64,000 bases of DNA from Candidatus Yanofskybacteria bacterium RIFCSPHIGHO2_01_FULL_41_21 (GTDB lineage: Bacteria; Patescibacteriota; Minisyncoccia; 2-02-FULL-40-12; GWA2-44-9). Positions within the stretch are counted from its first letter, which is position 1. The number at the start of each line of letters is the position of its first letter. Positions 3,825 to 58,047 of the stretch are shown one piece after another. The position numbers and the translations under genes were made by a program. The DNA is taken from assembly GCA_001794025.1 (NCBI GenBank), contig MGJA01000003.1, forward strand, positions 12,909-76,908. Direction: 5' to 3'. Under the pieces are notes generated by a model that saw only the letters and a list, made by a program, of their open reading frames with translations, was not told the origin of the DNA and did not search any database.

Positions 3825-3917
3825 CCCTTAAGCCCCAGTAGCGGAAGGGGACCCGCGTAGCGGGGGAACCGCCGGGACTGGTTCCCCGGGTCTGGGGCGA
3901 AAGGGTTAGTTCTCAAG
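3825..3917. ncRNA. GC-rich nested-hairpin element between parA and parB; function unknown. Outer 14-bp stem GAGAACTAACCCTT/AAGGGTTAGTTCTC.
   Basis: Perfect 14-bp inverted repeat enclosing CCCCAG/CTGGGG and GGGGAACC/GGTTCCCC helices. Locally ~65% GC in an AT-rich genome. The 3' arm recurs at 11297-11310 just upstream of topA. Confidence 0.4.
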
Positions 3918-3928
3918 ATCAACAAGTT

Positions 3929-4819
3929 ATGTCTATGAATAAAAAATTCTTTGGTCTAGGTAAGGGCTTAGGTTCTTTAATTCCTGAAGGGGCAAAGGCG
4001 ATGTCGCCGACTTCTCAAAAGGAGAATGTTTTTTATGTTGAGGTCTCCAAAATTGATGCCAACCCCGACCAACCCCGCCGGGACTTTGATAATGATGCGC
4101 TTAAAGAATTATCCGGCTCTATTCGTAAATATGGCGTTCTTCAACCTTTGCTGGTTTCCAAAGTAGAGACCTTGTCCGTGAAGGGGATAGATGTTTCATA
4201 TAATTTAATTGCCGGTGAACGTCGTTTGCGGGCGGCCAAGATGGCGGGTTTGCCTCATGTGCCCGTAATTATTCGCGATGATTTTAAACAGGATAAAGAA
4301 CGTCTGGAAGTGGCTTTGATTGAAAACGTTCAACGCGAAGATTTAAATCCGCTTGAAGAAGCCGAAGCGTACATGAAACTTTCCAAGGATTTTGGTCTGA
4401 CTCAAAAAGAAATCGCCGAAAAGGTTGGTAAGTCCCGCGAAGTTGTAGCCAATACGATTCGTTTGATGAATCTTCCCCAAGATATTAAGGACTCACTTCG
4501 GGCCGGAAAAATCGCTCGCGCCAGCGCTCGCGCTTTGCTCGCTTTCAGTGATCCCGCCAAGCAACGTCAGGTCTACGAAAGTATTTTGGCTGGCGGTGTC
4601 TCTTCTCGTGATGTGGAAACGGCGGCTTCGGTTAATAAGCCCGCTACAAAAAAGCCCCGTCTGACTGAAGGCAAGTTTATTGAACTGGAAAAAAATCTCG
4701 CCGACACTCTCGGTACTCATGTCTCCATTCAGGGCGCCGTCGCCTCCGGCGGAAAAATCGTCATCAAATTCGCCGATCTTCAACACCTCAACAAAATCGC
4801 AAAGAGTATTATCGATTAA
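3929..4819 (+). CDS. parB: Chromosome partitioning protein ParB/Spo0J
   Basis: IAGERRLRAAKMAGL ParB box and HTH region LTQKEIAEKVGKSREVVANTIRL. Confidence 0.9.
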   Translation: MSMNKKFFGLGKGLGSLIPEGAKAMSPTSQKENVFYVEVSKIDANPDQPRRDFDNDALKELSGSIRKYGVLQPLLVSKVETLSVKGIDVSYNLIAGERRLRAAKMAGLPHVPVIIRDDFKQDKERLEVALIENVQREDLNPLEEAEAYMKLSKDFGLTQKEIAEKVGKSREVVANTIRLMNLPQDIKDSLRAGKIARASARALLAFSDPAKQRQVYESILAGGVSSRDVETAASVNKPATKKPRLTEGKFIELEKNLADTLGTHVSIQGAVASGGKIVIKFADLQHLNKIAKSIID

Positions 4820-4826
4820 AAATAGT

Positions 4827-4998
4827 CGCTCCCTCCACCCCAACCCCCGACTCGACCGATAATAAACCTGCTCCAGCGGCAGGTTTTTATCTAGACCGCT
4901 CGGTTCCTCACCAAGCACCTCGGATTATGTCTTCCGCACCCATCGACATAATCCTAGCTTCGGAACCTCCGCGACTTCTCGCTGGGGGTTAGGGTGTT
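4827..4998 (+). repeat. MITE-like repeat copy A (172 bp), perfect inverted copy of 7072-7243. Contains an intrinsic terminator hairpin (4865-4888 + T-tract).
   Basis: Every base of 4827-4998 matches the reverse complement of 7072-7243. Element ends CCAACCCCCGAC / CTGGGGGTTAGG form short imperfect TIRs. Internal hairpins AACCTGCTCCAGCGGCAGGTTTTT and GGATTATGTC...GACATAATCC. Confidence 0.9.
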
Positions 4999-5136
4999 AG
5001 CCGCTTTTATTTGTTTCTAACCAATCATGCAGATTGAGAAAAATTCCAACAACCCCGCTTAGTTTTTACTCAACAACTCAATGGATTGAGCCGTTAGGAC
5101 GGTGTTTAATTAGTTGATTTGAATCAAAAATAATGA

Positions 5137-6811: not shown

Positions 6812-7071
6812 GAGTTATGGTCAGCTTAAGATAAATGGAATAATTTTCGACAATAACACGCGGCCACATTCAGCAAGTTCTAAATTGACTGATTTCAGGG
6901 AATGTTGTTTCAGTTATTGTTTCTCGACGTTTTATTCTAAGTATCGAAGTTTGGTTATTTAGATTTTCTGAGGCGACCAAATTCAGTAGTCCGATTACAT
7001 TATACAAAACCATAAAATTTGACGAAATAGCAATAAAATTGTCTCTGTGGATAAATCTGTTGATAACAAAC

Positions 7072-7243
7072 CACAGCGACCAACACCCTAACCCCCAGCG
7101 AGAAGTCGCGGAGGTTCCGAAGCTAGGATTATGTCGATGGGTGCGGAAGACATAATCCGAGGTGCTTGGTGAGGAACCGAGCGGTCTAGATAAAAACCTG
7201 CCGCTGGAGCAGGTTTATTATCGGTCGAGTCGGGGGTTGGGGT
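7072..7243 (-). repeat. MITE-like repeat copy B (172 bp), inverted relative to copy A
   Basis: Reverse complement is identical to 4827-4998. Confidence 0.9.
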
Positions 7244-7253
7244 GGAGGGAGCG

Positions 7254-24689: not shown

Positions 24690-25582
24690 GCTCGACTCTG
24701 ACATTTCCCTTGCTGTTCTCTCCGCCTGTCTCGCAACCTCGACCTCGTCACTGATGCCGAACAAAAAGGCCACCTGATTTACGCTTCGCTACAAACATCC
24801 TTTTTGTTACCGGCATAGTTTCCTCGGTCTTTGGGCGAGAAGACGGCGTCGTTCAACGCTCGGAAATGCCCGAGCCGAGCTTATTTTTGTGGTTTTTGGC
24901 CCCTATTTTCAATCTTGACTTTTATATGAAATAAGAGTATAATTAAAATATGATTCAATGAGCAGTTCCTTTCAAGGAGGTTGGTAGTGCCGACAGCAAC
25001 AGCAGTTGAAATCCCTTCTCGTGGTTACGCCGACGTTTTCGATCTTCGGATCGAGGGCGACGGAAAGACTCACGGCGTCGGTGCTGGTTCTCAGTACATC
25101 GGCGGTTACTCCGGCATGGGCTGGTACGAGTACTTCATCGACAGGAATACCGGCGAGAAGTACAAGGTCCACTGCTCGGATGGAGTGAACGGTGGCAAGG
25201 ACGCCCACACCGACAAGGATTGCAAGTGGCGACACGATTGCTACTTGGCAATCATCGAGCGAACTCACGCCGAGACCAAGACCGGCCAGACGGTCGTCTA
25301 CATCTCGCGCAACGAATGGGTCATCATGCAGGGGTTCGACCACGGTAAGTGGTTGGAGACCGCCGAGGGCCTGCGCGACGGCGAGCAGAGCAAGGAGAAC
25401 GTTATCGAAGGTGGATTCATTGGCATGTGCCGAGGCATCCCCGTCGTCTGCGATCTCAAGCGTGTGGACAAACTCCCGCCTCGGGAGTAGCCGAAGCACC
25501 ACAGCATAGGCGGAGGGTTGATCCCTCCGCCGAGCCCGACCAACCCTCGGGTTTTTTCATACAAAAAATTGAGGAGCGAAGC
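24690..25582. other. GC-rich (~60%) foreign island in an otherwise AT-rich chromosome
   Basis: Abrupt composition shift. Both strands are open because of the GC bias. Bounded downstream by MITE-like copy C. Confidence 0.7.
24987..25490 (+). CDS. Hypothetical protein encoded in the GC-rich island
   Basis: AAGGAGG RBS at 24974-24980, 6 nt before a GTG (TTG at 24981 also possible). 168-aa ORF; no motif recognised. The antisense ORF 24972-25502 is regarded as a GC artefact. Confidence 0.45.
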   Translation: MPTATAVEIPSRGYADVFDLRIEGDGKTHGVGAGSQYIGGYSGMGWYEYFIDRNTGEKYKVHCSDGVNGGKDAHTDKDCKWRHDCYLAIIERTHAETKTGQTVVYISRNEWVIMQGFDHGKWLETAEGLRDGEQSKENVIEGGFIGMCRGIPVVCDLKRVDKLPPRE

Positions 25583-25738
25583 CCCTAACCCCCAGCGAGA
25601 AGTTGCGCAGGTCAATTTGCTTTAGCCAATTGACGAACCCCCGAAGCTTGGTGCTTGGTGAGGGGGCGAGCGTCTAGATAGCGCCGAGTCGCTGGAACGA
25701 GGTGACTATCGGTCGAGTCGGGGGTTGGGGGCGGAGCT
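25583..25738 (-). repeat. MITE-like repeat copy C (diverged; same family as 4827-4998 / 7072-7243)
   Basis: Shares ends CCCTAACCCCCAGCGAGAAGT... and ...TATCGGTCGAGTCGGGGGTTGGGG with copy B. The centre is diverged. Confidence 0.7.
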
Positions 25739-39066: not shown

Positions 39067-39462
39067 ATGAGTGAACAAATATCAACGCCGGAAAAAGTAT
39101 CTAGAGAGCAAGCTCTCGCTATGTATAGAAAATTTGTAGAGCGTGGAATTACCAGTCCCGATGCTTTAGATTTGAATGATCCCGAAGTTATTGAAGCGAA
39201 TAAACTATTTGAAAAATGGGACGCGCAAGAGAGTGTAAAAGGAGATTTTGAAAGGCATAATTTTGAAAAGACCAAGTTTTATGTTGATGCTGGATTTACC
39301 GACTCTAATTATCTTGGGGATGTTCTAGGATGGCTCTTTCAAGATGCGGGAGATATAGAAAAGCAACCAGATAATCCCACTCGAGTTCAATTGCGAAGCG
39401 ACTACGCAAAAGAGATAAAAAAGATCAGGGACTTATTGGGCTTGGCCACCGGTGGGAATTGA
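39067..39462 (+). CDS. Hypothetical protein (131 aa)
   Basis: ORF preceded by intergenic modules M1/M2. No motif recognised. Confidence 0.45.
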   Translation: MSEQISTPEKVSREQALAMYRKFVERGITSPDALDLNDPEVIEANKLFEKWDAQESVKGDFERHNFEKTKFYVDAGFTDSNYLGDVLGWLFQDAGDIEKQPDNPTRVQLRSDYAKEIKKIRDLLGLATGGN

Positions 39463-39492
39463 GCCGACAGTCGGCTCAATTCCCACCATTTG
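39455..39492. repeat. 38-bp perfect palindrome GGTGGGAATTGAGCCGACAGTCGGCTCAATTCCCACC (copy 1); identical copy at 42567-42603
   Basis: Exact duplicate 3.1 kb away. Followed in both cases by TTTGAGCCGAT... and CCGAGACACGTTGCTA modules. Confidence 0.8.
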
Positions 39493-39577
39493 AGCCGATG
39501 CTGTTATTGATCAAGGTGGTGTTCAGCTAAGGTTAGACGGGTTATTCCGCCTGAGACACGTTGCTAGTTTAAAATTT

Positions 39578-42448: not shown

Positions 42449-42566
42449 TAAATAAAAATAACTTATAAATTCTGCTCGAGGCCTGTCATTTATGATAAGA
42501 TTTGAATAGTTAACCCTTCGATAAAAACTCAGGGTAATAAACACTCTGTAGGGCCTGTCGCTGGTG

Positions 42567-42603
42567 GGAATTGAGCCGACAGTCGGCTCAATTCCCACCA
42601 TTT
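42567..42603. repeat. 38-bp perfect palindrome (copy 2)
   Basis: Identical to 39455-39492. Confidence 0.8.
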
Positions 42604-42646
42604 GAGCCGATACCGTTCTGGTCTGGTCCGAGACACGTTGCTAAAT

Positions 42647-46872: not shown

Positions 46873-47562
46873 TTATTGATAGTCAGGCGAGTTGCGATAG
46901 ACGAATTTTTTAAATTTAGACCAAGTGGTCTTTGGTTTTTTGATGACTTGAATAACCTTGCCGTTGACGAGGTAGTTATCCATGTCATCGCGGTGAATGA
47001 AGATGGGGGAGAAACTGGCGCTGGATTCGGAAAGAAGGATAATACGTTTATTGTCGGTGTCTTTAAAATAGCGTTTAATGTTGGCCATGCCATCAATGAT
47101 AGACAGAACATAGTCGCCATTTTTTATAACCGTACAGGTCGGGTCTACAAGAACATAGTCGCCATCTTCAACCGAAAGACCGTTAATGTTGGCCTTATTC
47201 ATGGAATGGCCGGAGGCCTTGATGGCGAAGATGCCTTTTTTCTTGCTTAGTAGTTTACCTGAAACTCGGAGATAACCTTCGGCTTCTTGGTCGGCATACG
47301 CTGTGGCCGGGCCGCAATTGGCGGTGCCCAAGATTGGTATGGCGAGGAGGGAGCTTTTGGCGGTGAGGCCGGGGCGGGTCTTGACCATGACTTTGGTGAG
47401 GCGATCCAATTGAATGAGACCATTTTTCTCAAGCTGAAGGATGTGGTGTTTGATTTTCTGGGGTGATGTTTCATTGATGTATTTTCCTATTTCCCGCAAA
47501 CTCATGTCGGCGATATTTTCCTTTCCGGCTAACGCTAATATTTTTTCTTGTAAGATGTGCAT
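46873..47562 (-). CDS. lexA: LexA repressor (wHTH + S24 peptidase)
   Basis: N-terminal wHTH, cleavage-site region AIPILGTANCGPA, and catalytic S/K (GHSM...K). Confidence 0.8.
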   Translation of the reverse strand: MHILQEKILALAGKENIADMSLREIGKYINETSPQKIKHHILQLEKNGLIQLDRLTKVMVKTRPGLTAKSSLLAIPILGTANCGPATAYADQEAEGYLRVSGKLLSKKKGIFAIKASGHSMNKANINGLSVEDGDYVLVDPTCTVIKNGDYVLSIIDGMANIKRYFKDTDNKRIILLSESSASFSPIFIHRDDMDNYLVNGKVIQVIKKPKTTWSKFKKFVYRNSPDYQ

Positions 47563-47581
47563 CAGGTAGTAGAGATTCGAC

Positions 47582-47794
47582 TTACCGCAATAGGTAATCC
47601 CGTAACCTCCGTTTAATCAATCTCGAACCTTGATTTGTTTTTAAATACTCTTCTCTGCGCTGTGCATCATTAAATTTTAGACACGCTTCACAATAAATAA
47701 TGTGCCACGGTCTACCAGATTTAGTTGACCTATTGCGGCCTTGATTATGTTCCGATAATCTTCTCTCTAGATTAACAGTGTATCCGATATACAA
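47582..47794 (-). CDS. GIY-YIG nuclease-family small protein (YhbQ-like); likely extends upstream to ~47839 with a non-canonical start
   Basis: Annotated from TTG. The in-frame upstream sequence encodes FHYVYILENKDRELYIGYT (complete GIY-YIG motif) back to a TGA, with no ATG/GTG/TTG; only ATT/ATA are available. Confidence 0.55.
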   Translation of the reverse strand: MYIGYTVNLERRLSEHNQGRNRSTKSGRPWHIIYCEACLKFNDAQRREEYLKTNQGSRLIKRRLRDYLLR

Positions 47795-48033
47795 TTCTCT
47801 ATCTTTGTTTTCTAAGATATAAACGTAGTGGAATATAATCTTGTCGAATCTTCACTACCTGACTATGTGTCAAGTATATCATTTTGAGTTGTCCACAGTC
47901 AAATGGACACTCTTGACAGGTTGTTCACTTTGATAAAATTAAGATCCTTCCCTGTAACAATTTCTGAGGTCTTGCGTCTTAACTGTAAAGCAATTTAATT
48001 AAGACGAGGTCTGTACTTGTCCCTATAATATAT

Positions 48034-52157: not shown

Positions 52158-52853
52158 ATGGTTCAACATGGAATCAATCAACGTAAAAATTTGGCTATGT
52201 CCCTGCGGAGGGGCGGATATTCTTATTCAGAAATTCAAAAATTTGTCTCTGTGCCCAAGGCGACATTGTCTTATTGGTTTAAAGACATAAAATTATCGGA
52301 GGCGCAGTTAGTTCGGCTTCAAAAAAAACGAAATGATGCCATTCAGGAGGGAGCCCAAATTCGTTCTAAACGGGTCAACGAAGCCATTGAAAAAATTGAG
52401 AGGACTTCAGCCAAAGATATCAAAGATATTTCCAAAAGAGAGTTATGGTTGATGGGCGTCATGCTTTATTGGCGGGAAAGGGTTAGTGATAGAGATGTCA
52501 AAAAGGGTGTTAAATTTACTAGCTCGGACCCGCATCTGATTAGATTATTTTTGAAGTGGCTGATGGAGGTTGGTCAGCTCGGGGAGGCCGATGTTTTGTG
52601 TGATATTTTAATTGAGGGTGACAAAGACCTGCCTGCCGGCAGGCAGGAAAAAGCCATCAGTTATTGGTCGGAGGTGACGAGTTTTCCACAGACAGTATTT
52701 ACCCGAGTATACGTCCAAAAGACCAAGAAAAAAAGGAAAAAACGAGAGACAAAAAAGGCCGAGTTTGGTCTCTTGAGAATTAGGGTAAAAGCCAGTTCAA
52801 TGTTGGCTCGGCAATTATCCGGTTGGATCATGGCTATCCAGAATAAAATTTAG
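52158..52853 (+). CDS. Hypothetical HTH-domain protein (231 aa) carrying an in-frame 20-bp palindrome insertion (LPAGRQ)
   Basis: HTH-like GYSYSEIQKFVSVPKATLSYWF. K/R-rich C-terminus. Palindrome CCTGCCTGCCGGCAGGCAGG at 52628-52647. Confidence 0.5.
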   Translation: MVQHGINQRKNLAMSLRRGGYSYSEIQKFVSVPKATLSYWFKDIKLSEAQLVRLQKKRNDAIQEGAQIRSKRVNEAIEKIERTSAKDIKDISKRELWLMGVMLYWRERVSDRDVKKGVKFTSSDPHLIRLFLKWLMEVGQLGEADVLCDILIEGDKDLPAGRQEKAISYWSEVTSFPQTVFTRVYVQKTKKKRKKRETKKAEFGLLRIRVKASSMLARQLSGWIMAIQNKI

Positions 52854-53088
52854 TAAACATTACTAAGATTATATTAACCATTAGTAATGTTTATAAAGAA
52901 GCGTTGTGTTGCCTTGATTCATTAACTTAAGAAGAATATAATCTATTTATACATGAGAAAAACACTTATCTTTTTAGTCGTTGTAGTCATAGTCATTGTG
53001 ACTGTGGTTTTGGTTATGACTAGGTATGCTACGGCGCCAGGGAATACACCCGTTTTAACGTCACCATCAGTCCAACAATAACAATAAT

Positions 53089-53193
53089 CCCGTTAGAAAT
53101 TAACCCTATGGGAATACCACATAAATCTTTAATCAAACTACTTGCCAGTTCCACAGTGCAAAGTGGTGGATGGTTTGTAGAATTTCTAACGGG
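53089..53193 (+). repeat. Palindrome-ended element copy 2 (CCCGTTAGAAATT...AATTTCTAACGGG), abutting the ATG at 53194
   Basis: 13-bp terminal inverted repeats. Interior differs from copies 1 and 3. Confidence 0.6.
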
Positions 53194-53778
53194 ATGAAAT
53201 TATCCATGCCCCACATTCCTAAACTTTTTATTCCGCTCGCTTTTGTTATGGCCATGTCTATGGGATTGGTTTATGTTGTTGTCCAGCAAAATTTTAGAGC
53301 GAATGCGAATGACCCCCAGATTCAATTGGTTGAAGATTTAGTGGAACAACTATCAGCCGGTCGAACCGTGGAGTCCATTAATACAAGCGCTGGGGTTGAT
53401 ATGGCCCAGAGCTTGTCCCTCTTTCTTTTTATTTATGATGAGACCGGTAAAATGGTTGTCGGTACAGGTAAGCTTGATGGTCAGTATCCAACCTTACCGG
53501 ATGGTGTTTTGGAACGTGCCAAAGAGGTCGGTGAGAACAGAATTACCTGGGAACCTCAATCCGGTTTACGATTTGCGTTGGTTATTATTCCGTTTAGTGG
53601 GGATCAATCAGGATTCGTTGCTATTGGACGTTCCCTTCGAGAAGTTGAACAACGGATAGACATGCTTGGTCTCCAAGTGTTGGTTGTCTGGCTTATCGGT
53701 CTTCTCGGGTTATTTATTCTGATGGTTGGTGGAAAAATTATTTTTTCCAGATACTTTTCCAGTAAACAAATCGTATAA
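53170..53778 (+). CDS. Hypothetical membrane/secreted protein
   Basis: N-terminal TM and C-terminal TM. Alternative start ATG 53194 immediately after the element 3' arm, as for the other copies. Confidence 0.5.
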   Translation: MVCRISNGMKLSMPHIPKLFIPLAFVMAMSMGLVYVVVQQNFRANANDPQIQLVEDLVEQLSAGRTVESINTSAGVDMAQSLSLFLFIYDETGKMVVGTGKLDGQYPTLPDGVLERAKEVGENRITWEPQSGLRFALVIIPFSGDQSGFVAIGRSLREVEQRIDMLGLQVLVVWLIGLLGLFILMVGGKIIFSRYFSSKQIV

Positions 53779-53933
53779 TTCTCCCCATGATCAGGTAGTG
53801 AAAATCCGACAGGGTTACATCTAGCGCCTGTCGTATAATTTACTATTCTGGTAATGTTTGACCTATTTAAATTAATTCGTACTCTGCGTATTCAGGTGCA
53901 ACCTGAGGCGCATGTCGGATTTCTACTACCTGG

Positions 53934-54368
53934 ATGATTACCATTGATGATTTTAAAAAGATAGAACTTAAAGTTGGTCGTGTTTTAAACGCTGAACCAA
54001 TTGAAGGTTCGGAAAAATTGTTAAAGTTGCAAGTTGATTTAGGAGAGCCAAACCTGCCTGCCGGCAGGCAGGTTTTAGCGGGCATTGCTAAACATTATCA
54101 ACCGAGTGAACTTGTCGGTCGCCAAATTGTGATTATCGCTAATCTTGAACCTCGGATTTTCAATATTAATATAAAGAATGATGGTCCCGTTAGAAGTAAG
54201 ACGCCAGAGGCGTCTGCCGACCATGCCTCCGATGCAGGTCGGACTTCTAACGGGATGGAATCTAACGGTATGGTTTTGGCAGCATCGGGTCCGGCAACTG
54301 CCGGAGGTGAGCTCGTTTCCATACTTATGCCCGACAAAGAGTTACCTCCCGGATCAAGTGTTCGATAG
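53934..54368 (+). CDS. CsaA/Trbp111-like tRNA-binding domain protein, interrupted in frame by two palindromic insertions
   Basis: IDDFKKIELKVGRVLNAEPIEGSEKLLKLQVDLGE...VIIANLEPR...MESNGMVLAAS tRNA-binding fold. 26-bp palindrome at 54050-54075. Element copy at 54186-54254 adds PVRSKTPEASADHASDAGRTSNG. Confidence 0.65.
   Translation: MITIDDFKKIELKVGRVLNAEPIEGSEKLLKLQVDLGEPNLPAGRQVLAGIAKHYQPSELVGRQIVIIANLEPRIFNINIKNDGPVRSKTPEASADHASDAGRTSNGMESNGMVLAASGPATAGGELVSILMPDKELPPGSSVR
54186..54254 (+). repeat. Palindrome-ended element copy 4 (CCCGTTAGAAGT...ACTTCTAACGGG) inserted in frame inside a CDS
   Basis: 12-bp perfect TIRs. 69 nt = 23 codons; the reading frame is maintained. Confidence 0.7.
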
Positions 54369-54416: not shown

Positions 54417-54484
54417 CCCGTTAGAAGTCCCGCTCGCGACCTAGTCGCGAGTCCGGAGGACCTTGGCGGGGCTACTTCTAACGG
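54417..54484 (+). ncRNA. Palindrome-ended structured element copy 3, abutting the ATG at 54486
   Basis: CCCGTTAGAAGT/ACTTCTAACGG outer stem, CGCTCGCGAC-CTA-GTCGCGAG hairpin, and GAGTCCGGAGGACCTTGGCGGGG. Covaries with copy 1. Confidence 0.5.
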
Positions 54485-57060: not shown

Positions 57061-58047
57061 ATGAACGATTTTCGGAACAGGTTGATATTTGTGGGGTCTT
57101 TGGGGGTAGTTTTTATTTTTACTCTTATCTTTAGTTATGGCCCAGGATATGGCGGTCGCCTCTCGGCATTTTTAGGTAATAATGTCACCAATTCTCCAAA
57201 AATGTCACCTAGTGACATGGTGACACCGATGGTGACACAAAAAAAGATGGTGACATTACAAAATGTCACCAATGTCACCACCGTGTCACCAACTCTGTCA
57301 CCATCCCTTTATAATGACAGCCAGTATTACTCTGTGTCACCATCGGTGACACCATTGTCATCTGATGTCACCACCGTGTCACCAACTTTGTCACCACAGA
57401 CAAGTGTGTCACCATCTCTTTCTACTACTCCACGTTCGACAACATCAACACCTCAACCATCGGAAACACCGAGTCCGACTCCATCGCCTACCCAAACACC
57501 GACACCAACTTCTGTGACAATTGATGTCGGTTCAGTGGTTATTAATGAAATTGCCTGGATGGGGACAGGAGGGACAGCAAAATTATCAAATGATGAATGG
57601 ATAGAGCTTTATAATACGACTAGCCGAACAATTGATTTGACCGGCTGGATTCTGAAATCACTTACTGGTACTTCTCCAGATCCTCAAATTGCTTTATCTA
57701 ATTCAATTCAACCTTTCGGGTTCTACCTTCTTGAAAGAACTGATGATACAACTGTGTCTAATATTTTAGCCGGCCAGGTTTATACTGGTTCGCTGTTGGA
57801 TACCGGCGAAAATTTAGAACTTGTAGCTCCATCAGGTTTATTGATTGATGCGGTTCGTAGTGAAGGGTTATGGTATGCAGGCAATAAAGAAGGCAGATTT
57901 TCAATGGAACGCATAGATTCTAGTAAATTTGGGGATATTAGTAATAATTGGGGTACGAACAACGGCTTAATAGTAAATGGTTTAAATAGTGATGATGGCC
58001 CGATTAACGGCACACCGGGTGCGCCCAATAGTGTTACTACTCCATAA
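57061..58047 (+). CDS. Membrane-anchored lamin-tail-domain (LTD) protein with S/T/P-rich linker
   Basis: VVINEIAWMGT...NDEWIELYNTTSRTIDLTGWIL LTD signature; N-terminal TM. The linker DNA is full of GTGACA/TGTCAC repeats. Confidence 0.6.
   Translation: MNDFRNRLIFVGSLGVVFIFTLIFSYGPGYGGRLSAFLGNNVTNSPKMSPSDMVTPMVTQKKMVTLQNVTNVTTVSPTLSPSLYNDSQYYSVSPSVTPLSSDVTTVSPTLSPQTSVSPSLSTTPRSTTSTPQPSETPSPTPSPTQTPTPTSVTIDVGSVVINEIAWMGTGGTAKLSNDEWIELYNTTSRTIDLTGWILKSLTGTSPDPQIALSNSIQPFGFYLLERTDDTTVSNILAGQVYTGSLLDTGENLELVAPSGLLIDAVRSEGLWYAGNKEGRFSMERIDSSKFGDISNNWGTNNGLIVNGLNSDDGPINGTPGAPNSVTTP

Follow-up and report, generated by a model that had tools for sequence, protein, structure and literature searches.

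A mobile 20-bp palindrome in two genes of a Candidatus Yanofskybacteria contig and its conserved home beside a small GIY-YIG nuclease gene

Introduction

Why do two unrelated genes carry the same 20-bp perfect palindrome, translated in the same frame? The question is raised by a 64,000-nucleotide stretch of contig MGJA01000003.1 (positions 12,909 to 76,908 of the forward strand, GenBank assembly GCA_001794025.1) from Candidatus Yanofskybacteria bacterium RIFCSPHIGHO2_01_FULL_41_21, which we refer to, at its full length, as the window. The palindrome, CCTGCCTGCCGGCAGGCAGG (hereafter PAL), has exact matches at 52628-52647 and 54053-54072, 1425 nt apart, both of them in frame in long plus-strand open reading frames (ORFs) and both translated as LPAGRQ. 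An earlier reading of the letters alone (the sequence-only reading) had pointed out the identity of the two sites and their common peptide, which exact matching and the ORF frames confirm, and had held a chance recurrence to be negligible. The window has no third copy at up to three mismatches, and shuffles predict 0.01. It proposed a miniature inserted element, a footprint of recombination or gene conversion, or a protein-binding site kept in coding DNA. The features of the two sites are as follows.

52158..52853, plus strand: host gene 1, 231 amino acids (aa), helix-turn-helix (HTH)-like N-terminus, conserved Patescibacteria protein, family unknown
52628..52647, strand not applicable: PAL copy 1, solitary, exact match, read as DLPAGRQ in a predicted loop of the host protein
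52648..52648, plus strand: extra A beside copy 1, giving a net insertion of 21 nt (7 codons), its placement within the flanking A-run being ambiguous
53934..54368, plus strand: host gene 2, tRNA_bind (PF01588, E = 5e-22), of the CsaA / MetRS beta-chain (EMAP) type
54047..54052, plus strand: GCCAAA, what is left of the former Arg-Gln codons (CGC CAA A), translated out of frame as Pro-Asn
54053..54072, strand not applicable: PAL copy 2, solitary, older, exact match
Locus tags for window genes (Candidatus Yanofskybacteria RIFCSPHIGHO2_01_FULL): A2735_00375 and A2735_00385

Results

Both 20-mers of the window are solitary copies of a mobile inserted palindrome and not a conserved coding feature, as the orthologs of the two genes show. 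In gene 1, the closest orthologs (loci L121-L124, 93% identical) have the empty site GACAAA/AAGAAAGCC, where the slash marks the point of insertion, and the DNA alignment of the window with L121 contains a 21-nt gap that corresponds to the 20-mer and one A, the orthologs being 224 aa long and the window protein 231 aa. The insertion of the window is also present in L125, with one substitution, while L128 has an independent insertion 9 nt upstream, GTTGA[CCTGCCTGCCGGCAaGGCAGG]TGACAAC, with a frame-restoring extra A inside the palindrome; the matching empty site is kept in L132. The peptides DLPAGNAG and DDLPSGRS, found in further lineages, are decayed versions of this older, L128-type insertion.

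In gene 2, the empty orthologs (L125, L129, L132 and L133) read CGCCAAA/TTTTAGCGGGC, i.e., CGC CAA A/TT TTA GCG GGC (R Q I L A G), and the window reads GAG CCA AA[20-mer]TT TTA GCG GGC, with a gain of 20 nt and a loss of 8 nt upstream (net +12). The AGG CAG of copy 2 now encodes the conserved Arg-Gln of the gene 2 family. The same insertion is found in L121-L124 with one synonymous change and in L131 with three changes. Occupancy of the two sites is not nested, with L125 having site 1 only, L121 site 2 only and the window both, which implies recombination among strains or recurrent insertion. Spread among strains by ordinary recombination, once PAL had inserted in a gene, would account for this pattern. 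Gene conversion, as proposed by the sequence-only reading, may thus explain how the insertions are distributed among strains, but not where PAL came from.

Since 20 is not a multiple of three, genic copies survive only with a small compensating indel, and such indels are found: one A added beside copy 1, one A added inside the L128 copy, and 8 nt lost beside copy 2. The net changes (+21, +21 and +12) are all multiples of three by virtue of these extra indels, which shows that the insert is translated and not removed. At site 2, one of the six palindrome codons has changed, compared to 21 of the 63 flanking synonymous codons (p = 0.66), rates that are indistinguishable, so that no DNA-level constraint is detected on the solitary copy. 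The decayed variants among orthologs (LPNGRQ, LPTARQ and DLPAGNAG) keep the reading frame. According to AlphaFold models, both inserts are predicted to fall in coil between secondary-structure elements: residues 157-163 of gene 1 (mean predicted local distance difference test score, pLDDT, of 70) are placed in coil between strand 146-153 and helix 162-174, and residues 41-44 of gene 2 in a loop before strand 45-49, in a model that is weak overall (mean pLDDT 53.7) but reaches a block pLDDT of 66-81 in the N-terminal half, where the insert lies.

In summary, the orthologs do not universally bear LPAGRQ, and the empty orthologous sites, the independent insertions and the hundreds of copies found elsewhere (see below) strongly favor the inserted element among the options of the sequence-only reading. 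A protein-binding site kept in coding DNA does not fit these two copies, which are polymorphic in close relatives and decay at about the synonymous rate.

The frame common to the two window genes is also preferred elsewhere. The Pfam-verified genes that read the exact PAL as LPAGRQ encode FtsK, a sugar dehydratase (where PAL is nested in an older copy), GatB, a PMT-family glycosyltransferase and the tRNA_bind protein of the window. Host gene 1 has no family match in Pfam or NCBIfam; its well conserved Patescibacteria family, with 523 homologs, is our reason for counting it as a real gene. The LPAGRQ frame is thereby used in six of the seven verified genes (binomial P ~0.007), or in four of five (P ~0.045) without the two window copies, the sole exception being a type I restriction specificity (HsdS) gene in which PAL is read as PACRQAG. 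Cys occurs in both of the other frames, so that selection on the peptide suffices to explain this preference. In the phage locus L195, the PAL copies lie in varying frames. In L060 (3700-4250), the palindrome is followed by a GIY-YIG domain, in frame inside an HsdS gene, and a second, decayed 21-nt copy of the palindrome lies 130 nt upstream in the gene.

A scan for the exact 20-mer in a collection with one genome per species (596 Gb) revealed PAL in at least 120 genome stretches, with at least 127 copies, where the size of the collection and 4^20 give a chance expectation of about 0.5. The two window sites are thus accompanied by many other occurrences. Among the matches listed, the carriers are, by record title, 36 Patescibacteria, 39 Bacteroidota, 10 Omnitrophota, 8 Planctomycetota/PVC (Planctomycetes-Verrucomicrobia-Chlamydiae) and 12 uncultured Gammaproteobacteria/Pseudomonadota, with a few Bdellovibrionales, Thermodesulfovibrionales, Elusimicrobia and Chloroflexi, and none of these matches comes from Bacillota, Actinomycetota or Cyanobacteria. 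The cultured carriers in the Bacteroidota belong to Winogradskyella, Flagellimonas, Longitalea, Flavivirga, Aquiflexum, Agriterribacter and Aestuariivivens. Viral contigs contain 41 PAL copies in 35 stretches, including a 29.5-kb contig with six, and two control palindromes of identical composition have no match there. No exact copy was found in cultured phages and plasmids (9.6 Gb, searched with a dimer query). PAL is therefore found unchanged in about ten named bacterial groups and in phages.

The copy number per contig ranges from one to six, with two or more copies at ten loci, and the flanks of different copies are unrelated to each other. We considered whether the copies could delimit a composite element and rejected this, as copy pairs at the same locus do not bracket a common gene. 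The GC-rich viral contig L195 harbors a swarm with one exact copy and at least five decayed copies of 20 or 21 nt in frame in ORFs. On the same contig, a 21-nt variant of the palindrome (CCATGCCTACCGGCAGGCAGG) is repeated 11 times in tandem at 3915-4142, up to the contig end, and this array can be read as a heptapeptide repeat.

PAL is rich in G and C (16 of 20 positions). The GC content of the window is 35-48% in 2-kb steps, and that of the L104 stretch is 31-33%. Copy 2 is extended to a 26-bp palindrome by its AAA/TTT flanks, as the sequence-only reading correctly observed, and folds as an 11-bp DNA hairpin (-11.7 kcal/mol, z = -4.75). A terminator role for the window copies was rejected, since a loose terminator pattern fits the minus strand of copy 1 only and both copies lie inside ORFs.

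The mode of insertion can be read from loci that hold both a partial tRNA copy with PAL and an intact copy (L037, L106, L118 and L206-L225), in which the two differ by exactly 20 nt, with no duplication and no loss. PAL thus enters as exactly 20 bp, without duplication of the target or loss of target bases. In agreement with this, 71 of 125 copies have no base in common between their two flanks. There is no strong target consensus over the 250 half-flanks, where position -1 has merely a weak preference for A (42%) and an avoidance of T (10%). The structure around the junction is more distinctive: a stem of at least 6 bp surrounds 9.0% of copies compared to 2.0% of random positions in the same loci (p = 5e-6), and, where a stem is present, PAL abuts a stem strand in 52% vs. 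28% (p = 0.008). An intact tRNA gene lies within 100 nt of PAL in 28.6% vs. 6.0%. PAL occupies D-loop, anticodon-loop and variable-loop positions of tRNA-like sequences as well as the tips of other hairpins, and is nested at the center of older copies in L018, L042 and L021; nested copies are also found in L166 and L184.

Two further observations concern the surroundings of individual copies. Intergenic copies (L002, L035, L050, L058, L065, L101, L164, L170 and L185) often lie amid degenerate 7-8-nt words on both sides, as in gagtgatcgagtgacagagtgatt[PAL]gagtgacagag, which yields apparent direct repeats of 7-14 bp. In L186 (2239-2330), ARAGORN calls a 92-nt tRNA-Met with the palindrome at the variable-loop position, like an extra arm, and this could be a functional tRNA that tolerates the insert.

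PAL has its conserved home in a tiny selfish cassette, where it interrupts a partial tRNA copy beside a GIY-YIG gene. In an all-against-all comparison of the ORFs in palindrome loci, the GIY-YIG cluster (PF01541) alone has a median distance close to zero in five or more loci, and no other ORF family, transposases included, is concentrated beside PAL. The distance to PAL is 19-47 nt for five full GIY-YIG domains (each P <=0.017 under uniform placement within the locus). The order of the cassette is the 5' part of a tRNA interrupted by PAL, the GIY-YIG gene and an intact tRNA, so that the nuclease gene abuts an intact tRNA-Leu, -Lys, -Gly or -Arg gene with a duplicated partial copy present and PAL on one side of the nuclease gene, not at both ends. 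The entire unit is repeated in tandem cassettes (L218-L223). A variant of the cassette (L216 and L217) has lost PAL together with the first ~22 nt of the partial tRNA copy, upstream of the GIY-YIG gene, and is otherwise intact.

The GIY-YIG family, with at least 4,996 members, was also sampled irrespective of PAL. All six of the sampled lineages have, within the partial tRNA copy, either the exact PAL or a variant with one mismatch. The exact 20-mer is found in three lineages with tRNA-Leu(GAG), and the variant CCTGCCTaCCGGCAGGCAGG in two with tRNA-Leu(TAA); the sixth, a tRNA-Arg locus of Leeuwenhoekiella in which the layout is mirrored, has one exact copy and an older copy with one mismatch. 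An unbiased GIY-YIG sample from viral contigs yielded no more than nine distant loci and was set aside. Of 26 over-long gene calls in the family, about 11 include PAL or a decayed copy of it in their translation. Seven cassettes with four tRNA types were aligned (mean column identity 63%), and only at PAL do 20 invariant columns follow one another without a break. Hence, PAL stays invariant while its surroundings diverge, which implies that it is constrained or continually renewed in the cassettes, unlike the solitary copies. The nuclease of the cassette, with 77-79 aa (typically cited here as 78 aa), consists of the catalytic domain only. The solved proteins closest to it are those of UPF0213, with a weaker relationship to the structure-specific endonuclease SLX1. 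Two sources for the palindrome were judged by eye and dropped, namely the C-terminal SG.GRQ motif of the GIY-YIG protein, at which codon usage differs between cassettes, and tRNA or 5S rRNA sequence, which gave no convincing match.

Discussion

The two window copies are solitary, decaying copies of an ultra-short mobile palindrome that has its home in the GIY-YIG cassette, and the explanation set out here is, as a whole, probably right. The GIY-YIG nuclease is a credible candidate for the agent of the spread of PAL, a role that we rate a little short of probable. It would nick or cut structured DNA at stem-loop junctions, and the palindrome would then either be ligated in as an excised hairpin (peel-and-paste) or be copied from the cassette during break repair, in which case a hairpin in the nascent strand would limit the copied tract to 20 nt. 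Cassettes and phages would carry PAL between hosts. An insert in a gene is translated, usually as LPAGRQ and in predicted loops.

Several observations weigh against this explanation. To our knowledge, GIY-YIG nucleases do not catalyze strand transfer or ligation, and the cassette nucleases share only ~45% identity, so that a conserved recognition of 20 out of 20 positions would be remarkable. About 90% of copies have neither a GIY-YIG nor a tRNA gene in the surrounding 8-kb stretch, and about 80% have no flanking stem. A further ~4%, which direct repeats of 7-14 bp abut and which sit among arrays of short degenerate words, are left unexplained by the model. Few clades are represented among the six sampled cassette lineages (mostly Bacteroidota with tRNA-Leu), and the taxonomic picture may be biased, since the carriers are those among the matches listed (at least 120). 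The GIY-YIG genes of the relatives L138, L146 and L150 have no PAL, and no palindrome is found beside the GIY-YIG ORF of the window itself, which lies 5 kb from the PAL copies:

47585..47851, minus strand: window GIY-YIG ORF, same small-nuclease family (family hidden Markov model, E = 5e-25)

The reading frame of this ORF begins directly after TAG TGA stops in the same frame, and neither ATG nor GTG nor TTG occurs ahead of the conserved VY motif. It may therefore be a pseudogene or start at a non-canonical codon; the protein has no record in the assembly index.

In its most ambitious form, the explanation would make PAL and the 78-aa GIY-YIG gene a minimal autonomous/non-autonomous pair of a new mechanistic class, a hairpin transposition in which a structure-specific GIY-YIG nuclease excises or copies a 20-nt DNA hairpin and installs it at stem-loop junctions. 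We put this forward tentatively, and consider it rather doubtful. If it were true, PAL would be the shortest mobile DNA known, the requirements of the nuclease would hold it identical across about ten bacterial groups and phages, and new LPAGRQ loop peptides would continually be seeded into essential proteins such as FtsK and GatB.

A different enzyme, unlinked to PAL, could be responsible, either a transposase of the Y1/HUH type associated with repetitive extragenic palindromes (REPs) or host repair, with PAL gathering in partial tRNA copies that are neutral and rich in hairpins. The distance of most copies from any GIY-YIG gene and the existence of GIY-YIG genes without PAL fit this alternative, as does the duplication-free insertion in or beside hairpins, which is generally known from the biology of REPs and of the insertion sequences (IS) IS200/IS605. 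However, neutral accumulation does not predict that PAL stays invariant in cassettes whose non-coding parts diverge, nor that six out of six sampled lineages carry it, and the GIY-YIG family is the only ORF family concentrated beside it, so that we regard the alternative as unlikely.

Another possibility is that PAL is a conserved protein-binding or regulatory site, comparable to parS or CIRCE, that is under selection everywhere, in the window genes included. A perfect palindrome would suit a dimeric binder, identity of a binding site across phyla has a generally known precedent in parS, PAL is constrained inside the cassettes, and two copies adjoin parB-like genes (L001 and L048). Nevertheless, the presence and absence of PAL among orthologs that are 84-93% identical largely refutes such a role for the solitary copies, given the empty sites; these copies also decay at about the synonymous rate, and their contexts (ORFs, pseudo-tRNAs, hairpin tips and phage genes) are unrelated, with no consistent neighboring regulon. 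A general role as a binding site is thus very improbable. We give still less credence to a removal of PAL from RNA or its skipping in translation, as a mini-intron or bypass element for which the coding frame would be irrelevant: PAL does form a strong hairpin and occurs in tRNA-like sequences, and byp-like bypass elements are generally known from yeast mitochondria, but every genic case with an empty ortholog has a triplet net change, which is needed only if the insert is translated, decayed copies stay in frame, and PAL has no Rfam match. Chance recurrence or an assembly or library artefact, which the many metagenome-assembled genomes among the carriers might suggest, can practically be dismissed in view of the excess over the ~0.5 expected copies in 596 Gb, the lack of matches to the control palindromes, the same insertion in independent ENA, JGI and NCBI assemblies with substitutions and frame-restoring indels, and the presence of PAL in cultured isolates (Winogradskyella, Flagellimonas, Longitalea, Flavivirga and Aquiflexum).

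Should the nuclease-driven spread of a mobile palindrome from the cassette be confirmed, PAL would be a widespread genome-shaping agent that marks nuclease cassettes invading tRNA genes and writes short in-frame peptides into conserved proteins, and its nuclease would be a testable candidate enzyme for the long-open question of how GC-rich palindromes such as mitochondrial GC clusters and REPs move. Cultured hosts exist for this purpose (Zunongwangia pacifica and other Flavobacteriaceae and Chitinophagaceae). The 20-mer can be used as a simple marker of cassettes and recent insertions in metagenomes, and it explains puzzling indels of 4-7 residues and over-long gene calls (PACRQAG, CLPAGR and LPAGRQ) in the annotations of Patescibacteria and Bacteroidota.

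Other Repeats in the Window

The window contains further repeats. A second family of structured inserts consists of 67-nt units at 54187-54253 and 54418-54484, with terminal inverted repeats CCGTTAGAAGT...ACTTCTAACGG and GC-rich inner hairpins; these inserts have no match in Rfam. The former unit is in frame in the tRNA_bind ORF, as part of a stretch of ~34 additional aa that P0002 and P0003 also have and the L121 ortholog lacks, and the latter lies at the 5' end of a DUF5671 ORF. A longer relative is found at ~53089-53192, upstream of the ORF 53170-53778, and the motif TTCTAACGGNATG has seven matches vs. 0.34 expected.

A conserved 20-bp stem pair, TCAGGTAGTGAAAATCCGAC / GTCGGATTTCTACTACCTGG, at 53791-53810 with 53914-53933 closes a leader of ~100 nt that ends exactly at the tRNA_bind start codon. 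The same pair, at 47562-47581 with 47843-47862, encloses the window GIY-YIG ORF in the loop of the leader hairpin and directly adjoins the beginning of a LexA-like HTH ORF. L121, L124 and L132 have the stem pair as well.

A repeat resembling a miniature inverted-repeat transposable element (MITE) forms a 189-nt inverted pair at 4827-5015 and 7065-7253 (97% complementary), with a third, partial copy at 25576-25730. The sequence-only reading had heard in PAL an echo of the hairpin of this repeat (172 bp in its account), and this did not hold, as the 189-bp inverted repeat is more than four edits from PAL and what they have in common is merely the 8-bp stem AAACCTGC; a kinship between the two was accordingly rejected. 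A 55-nt unit built around the near-perfect 38-nt palindrome GGTGGGAATTGAGCCGACAGTCGGCTCAATTCCCACC has two copies (39451-39505 and 42563-42617, 96% identical), both in a low-GC part of the window (34-44 kb) with other repeated intergenic blocks. Finally, 57181-57396 contains direct and inverted short repeats built on GTCACC/GGTGAC words (families D12, D18 and I12).

Comparison with Known Systems

PAL seems not to have been described before, while being akin to short mobile palindromes. Neither its exact sequence nor the pairing of cassette and palindrome was found described in the literature covered, most subscription journals lying outside that coverage.

Some classes of element can be set apart briefly. 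Unlike classical MITEs, PAL has no target-site duplication of fixed length where an empty or intact counterpart exists, and no transposase family is enriched around its copies. The triplet constraint on the genic copies (+21, +21 and +12) departs from what defines an intron, intein or bypass element, and the position of PAL is not fixed among close orthologs as that of an operator or partition site would be.

The likeness to REPs and bacterial interspersed mosaic elements (BIMEs) with their REP-associated tyrosine transposases (RAYTs), and to the peel-and-paste transposition of IS200/IS605, lies in hairpin units of ~20-40 nt, duplication-free insertion and hairpin-related targets. However, REPs are imperfect palindromes with a conserved 5' tetranucleotide (GTAG-like), are extragenic and species-specific, and occur in hundreds of copies, whereas PAL is a perfect palindrome with a weak preference for A at -1, has in-frame copies within genes and is present in one to six copies per contig. 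No Y1 (HUH) transposase gene was seen in the 8-kb stretches around PAL copies. Rickettsia palindromic elements (RPEs) are likewise translated in frame, but measure ~100-150 bp and are multi-copy elements of one genus; PAL has 20 bp, needs a compensating indel to keep the frame, and is low-copy per genome and cross-phylum.

As for the cassette, the bare 78-aa catalytic domain contrasts with the Seg and I-TevI enzymes, which have DNA-binding domains of >200 aa, and we know of no palindrome component of Seg elements. As with homing endonucleases, the GIY-YIG gene stands beside its presumed target gene, here without a separate DNA-binding domain. The closest likeness is to the Seg proteins of T-even phages, notably SegB, a GIY-YIG enzyme that cuts inside tRNA genes, with break repair yielding tandem tRNA+seg repeats (PMC13096335); there, too, the GIY-YIG gene lies beside or within tRNA genes, and the tandem repeats resemble those of L218-L223. 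By analogy, SegB offers a precedent for the behavior of the cassette, not for the palindrome.

The palindrome itself resembles GC42 and other GC clusters of fungal mitochondria, which are short GC-rich palindromes that spread in AT-richer genomes, nest or merge, and occasionally occur in genes; the mechanism that mobilizes them is unknown, and intron-encoded endonucleases have been proposed (PMC4478555). PAL shares with them the GC-rich unit in a lower-GC genome and the nesting, and differs in lacking the AG/TAG duplication and the organellar location. Yeast GC42 is a 42-nt element with loops and an AG target duplication and is found in related mitochondria only (PMC4478555), whereas PAL is a loop-less perfect 20-mer that inserts without duplication, has one and the same sequence in different bacterial phyla and in phages, and stands in physical linkage with a particular nuclease gene.

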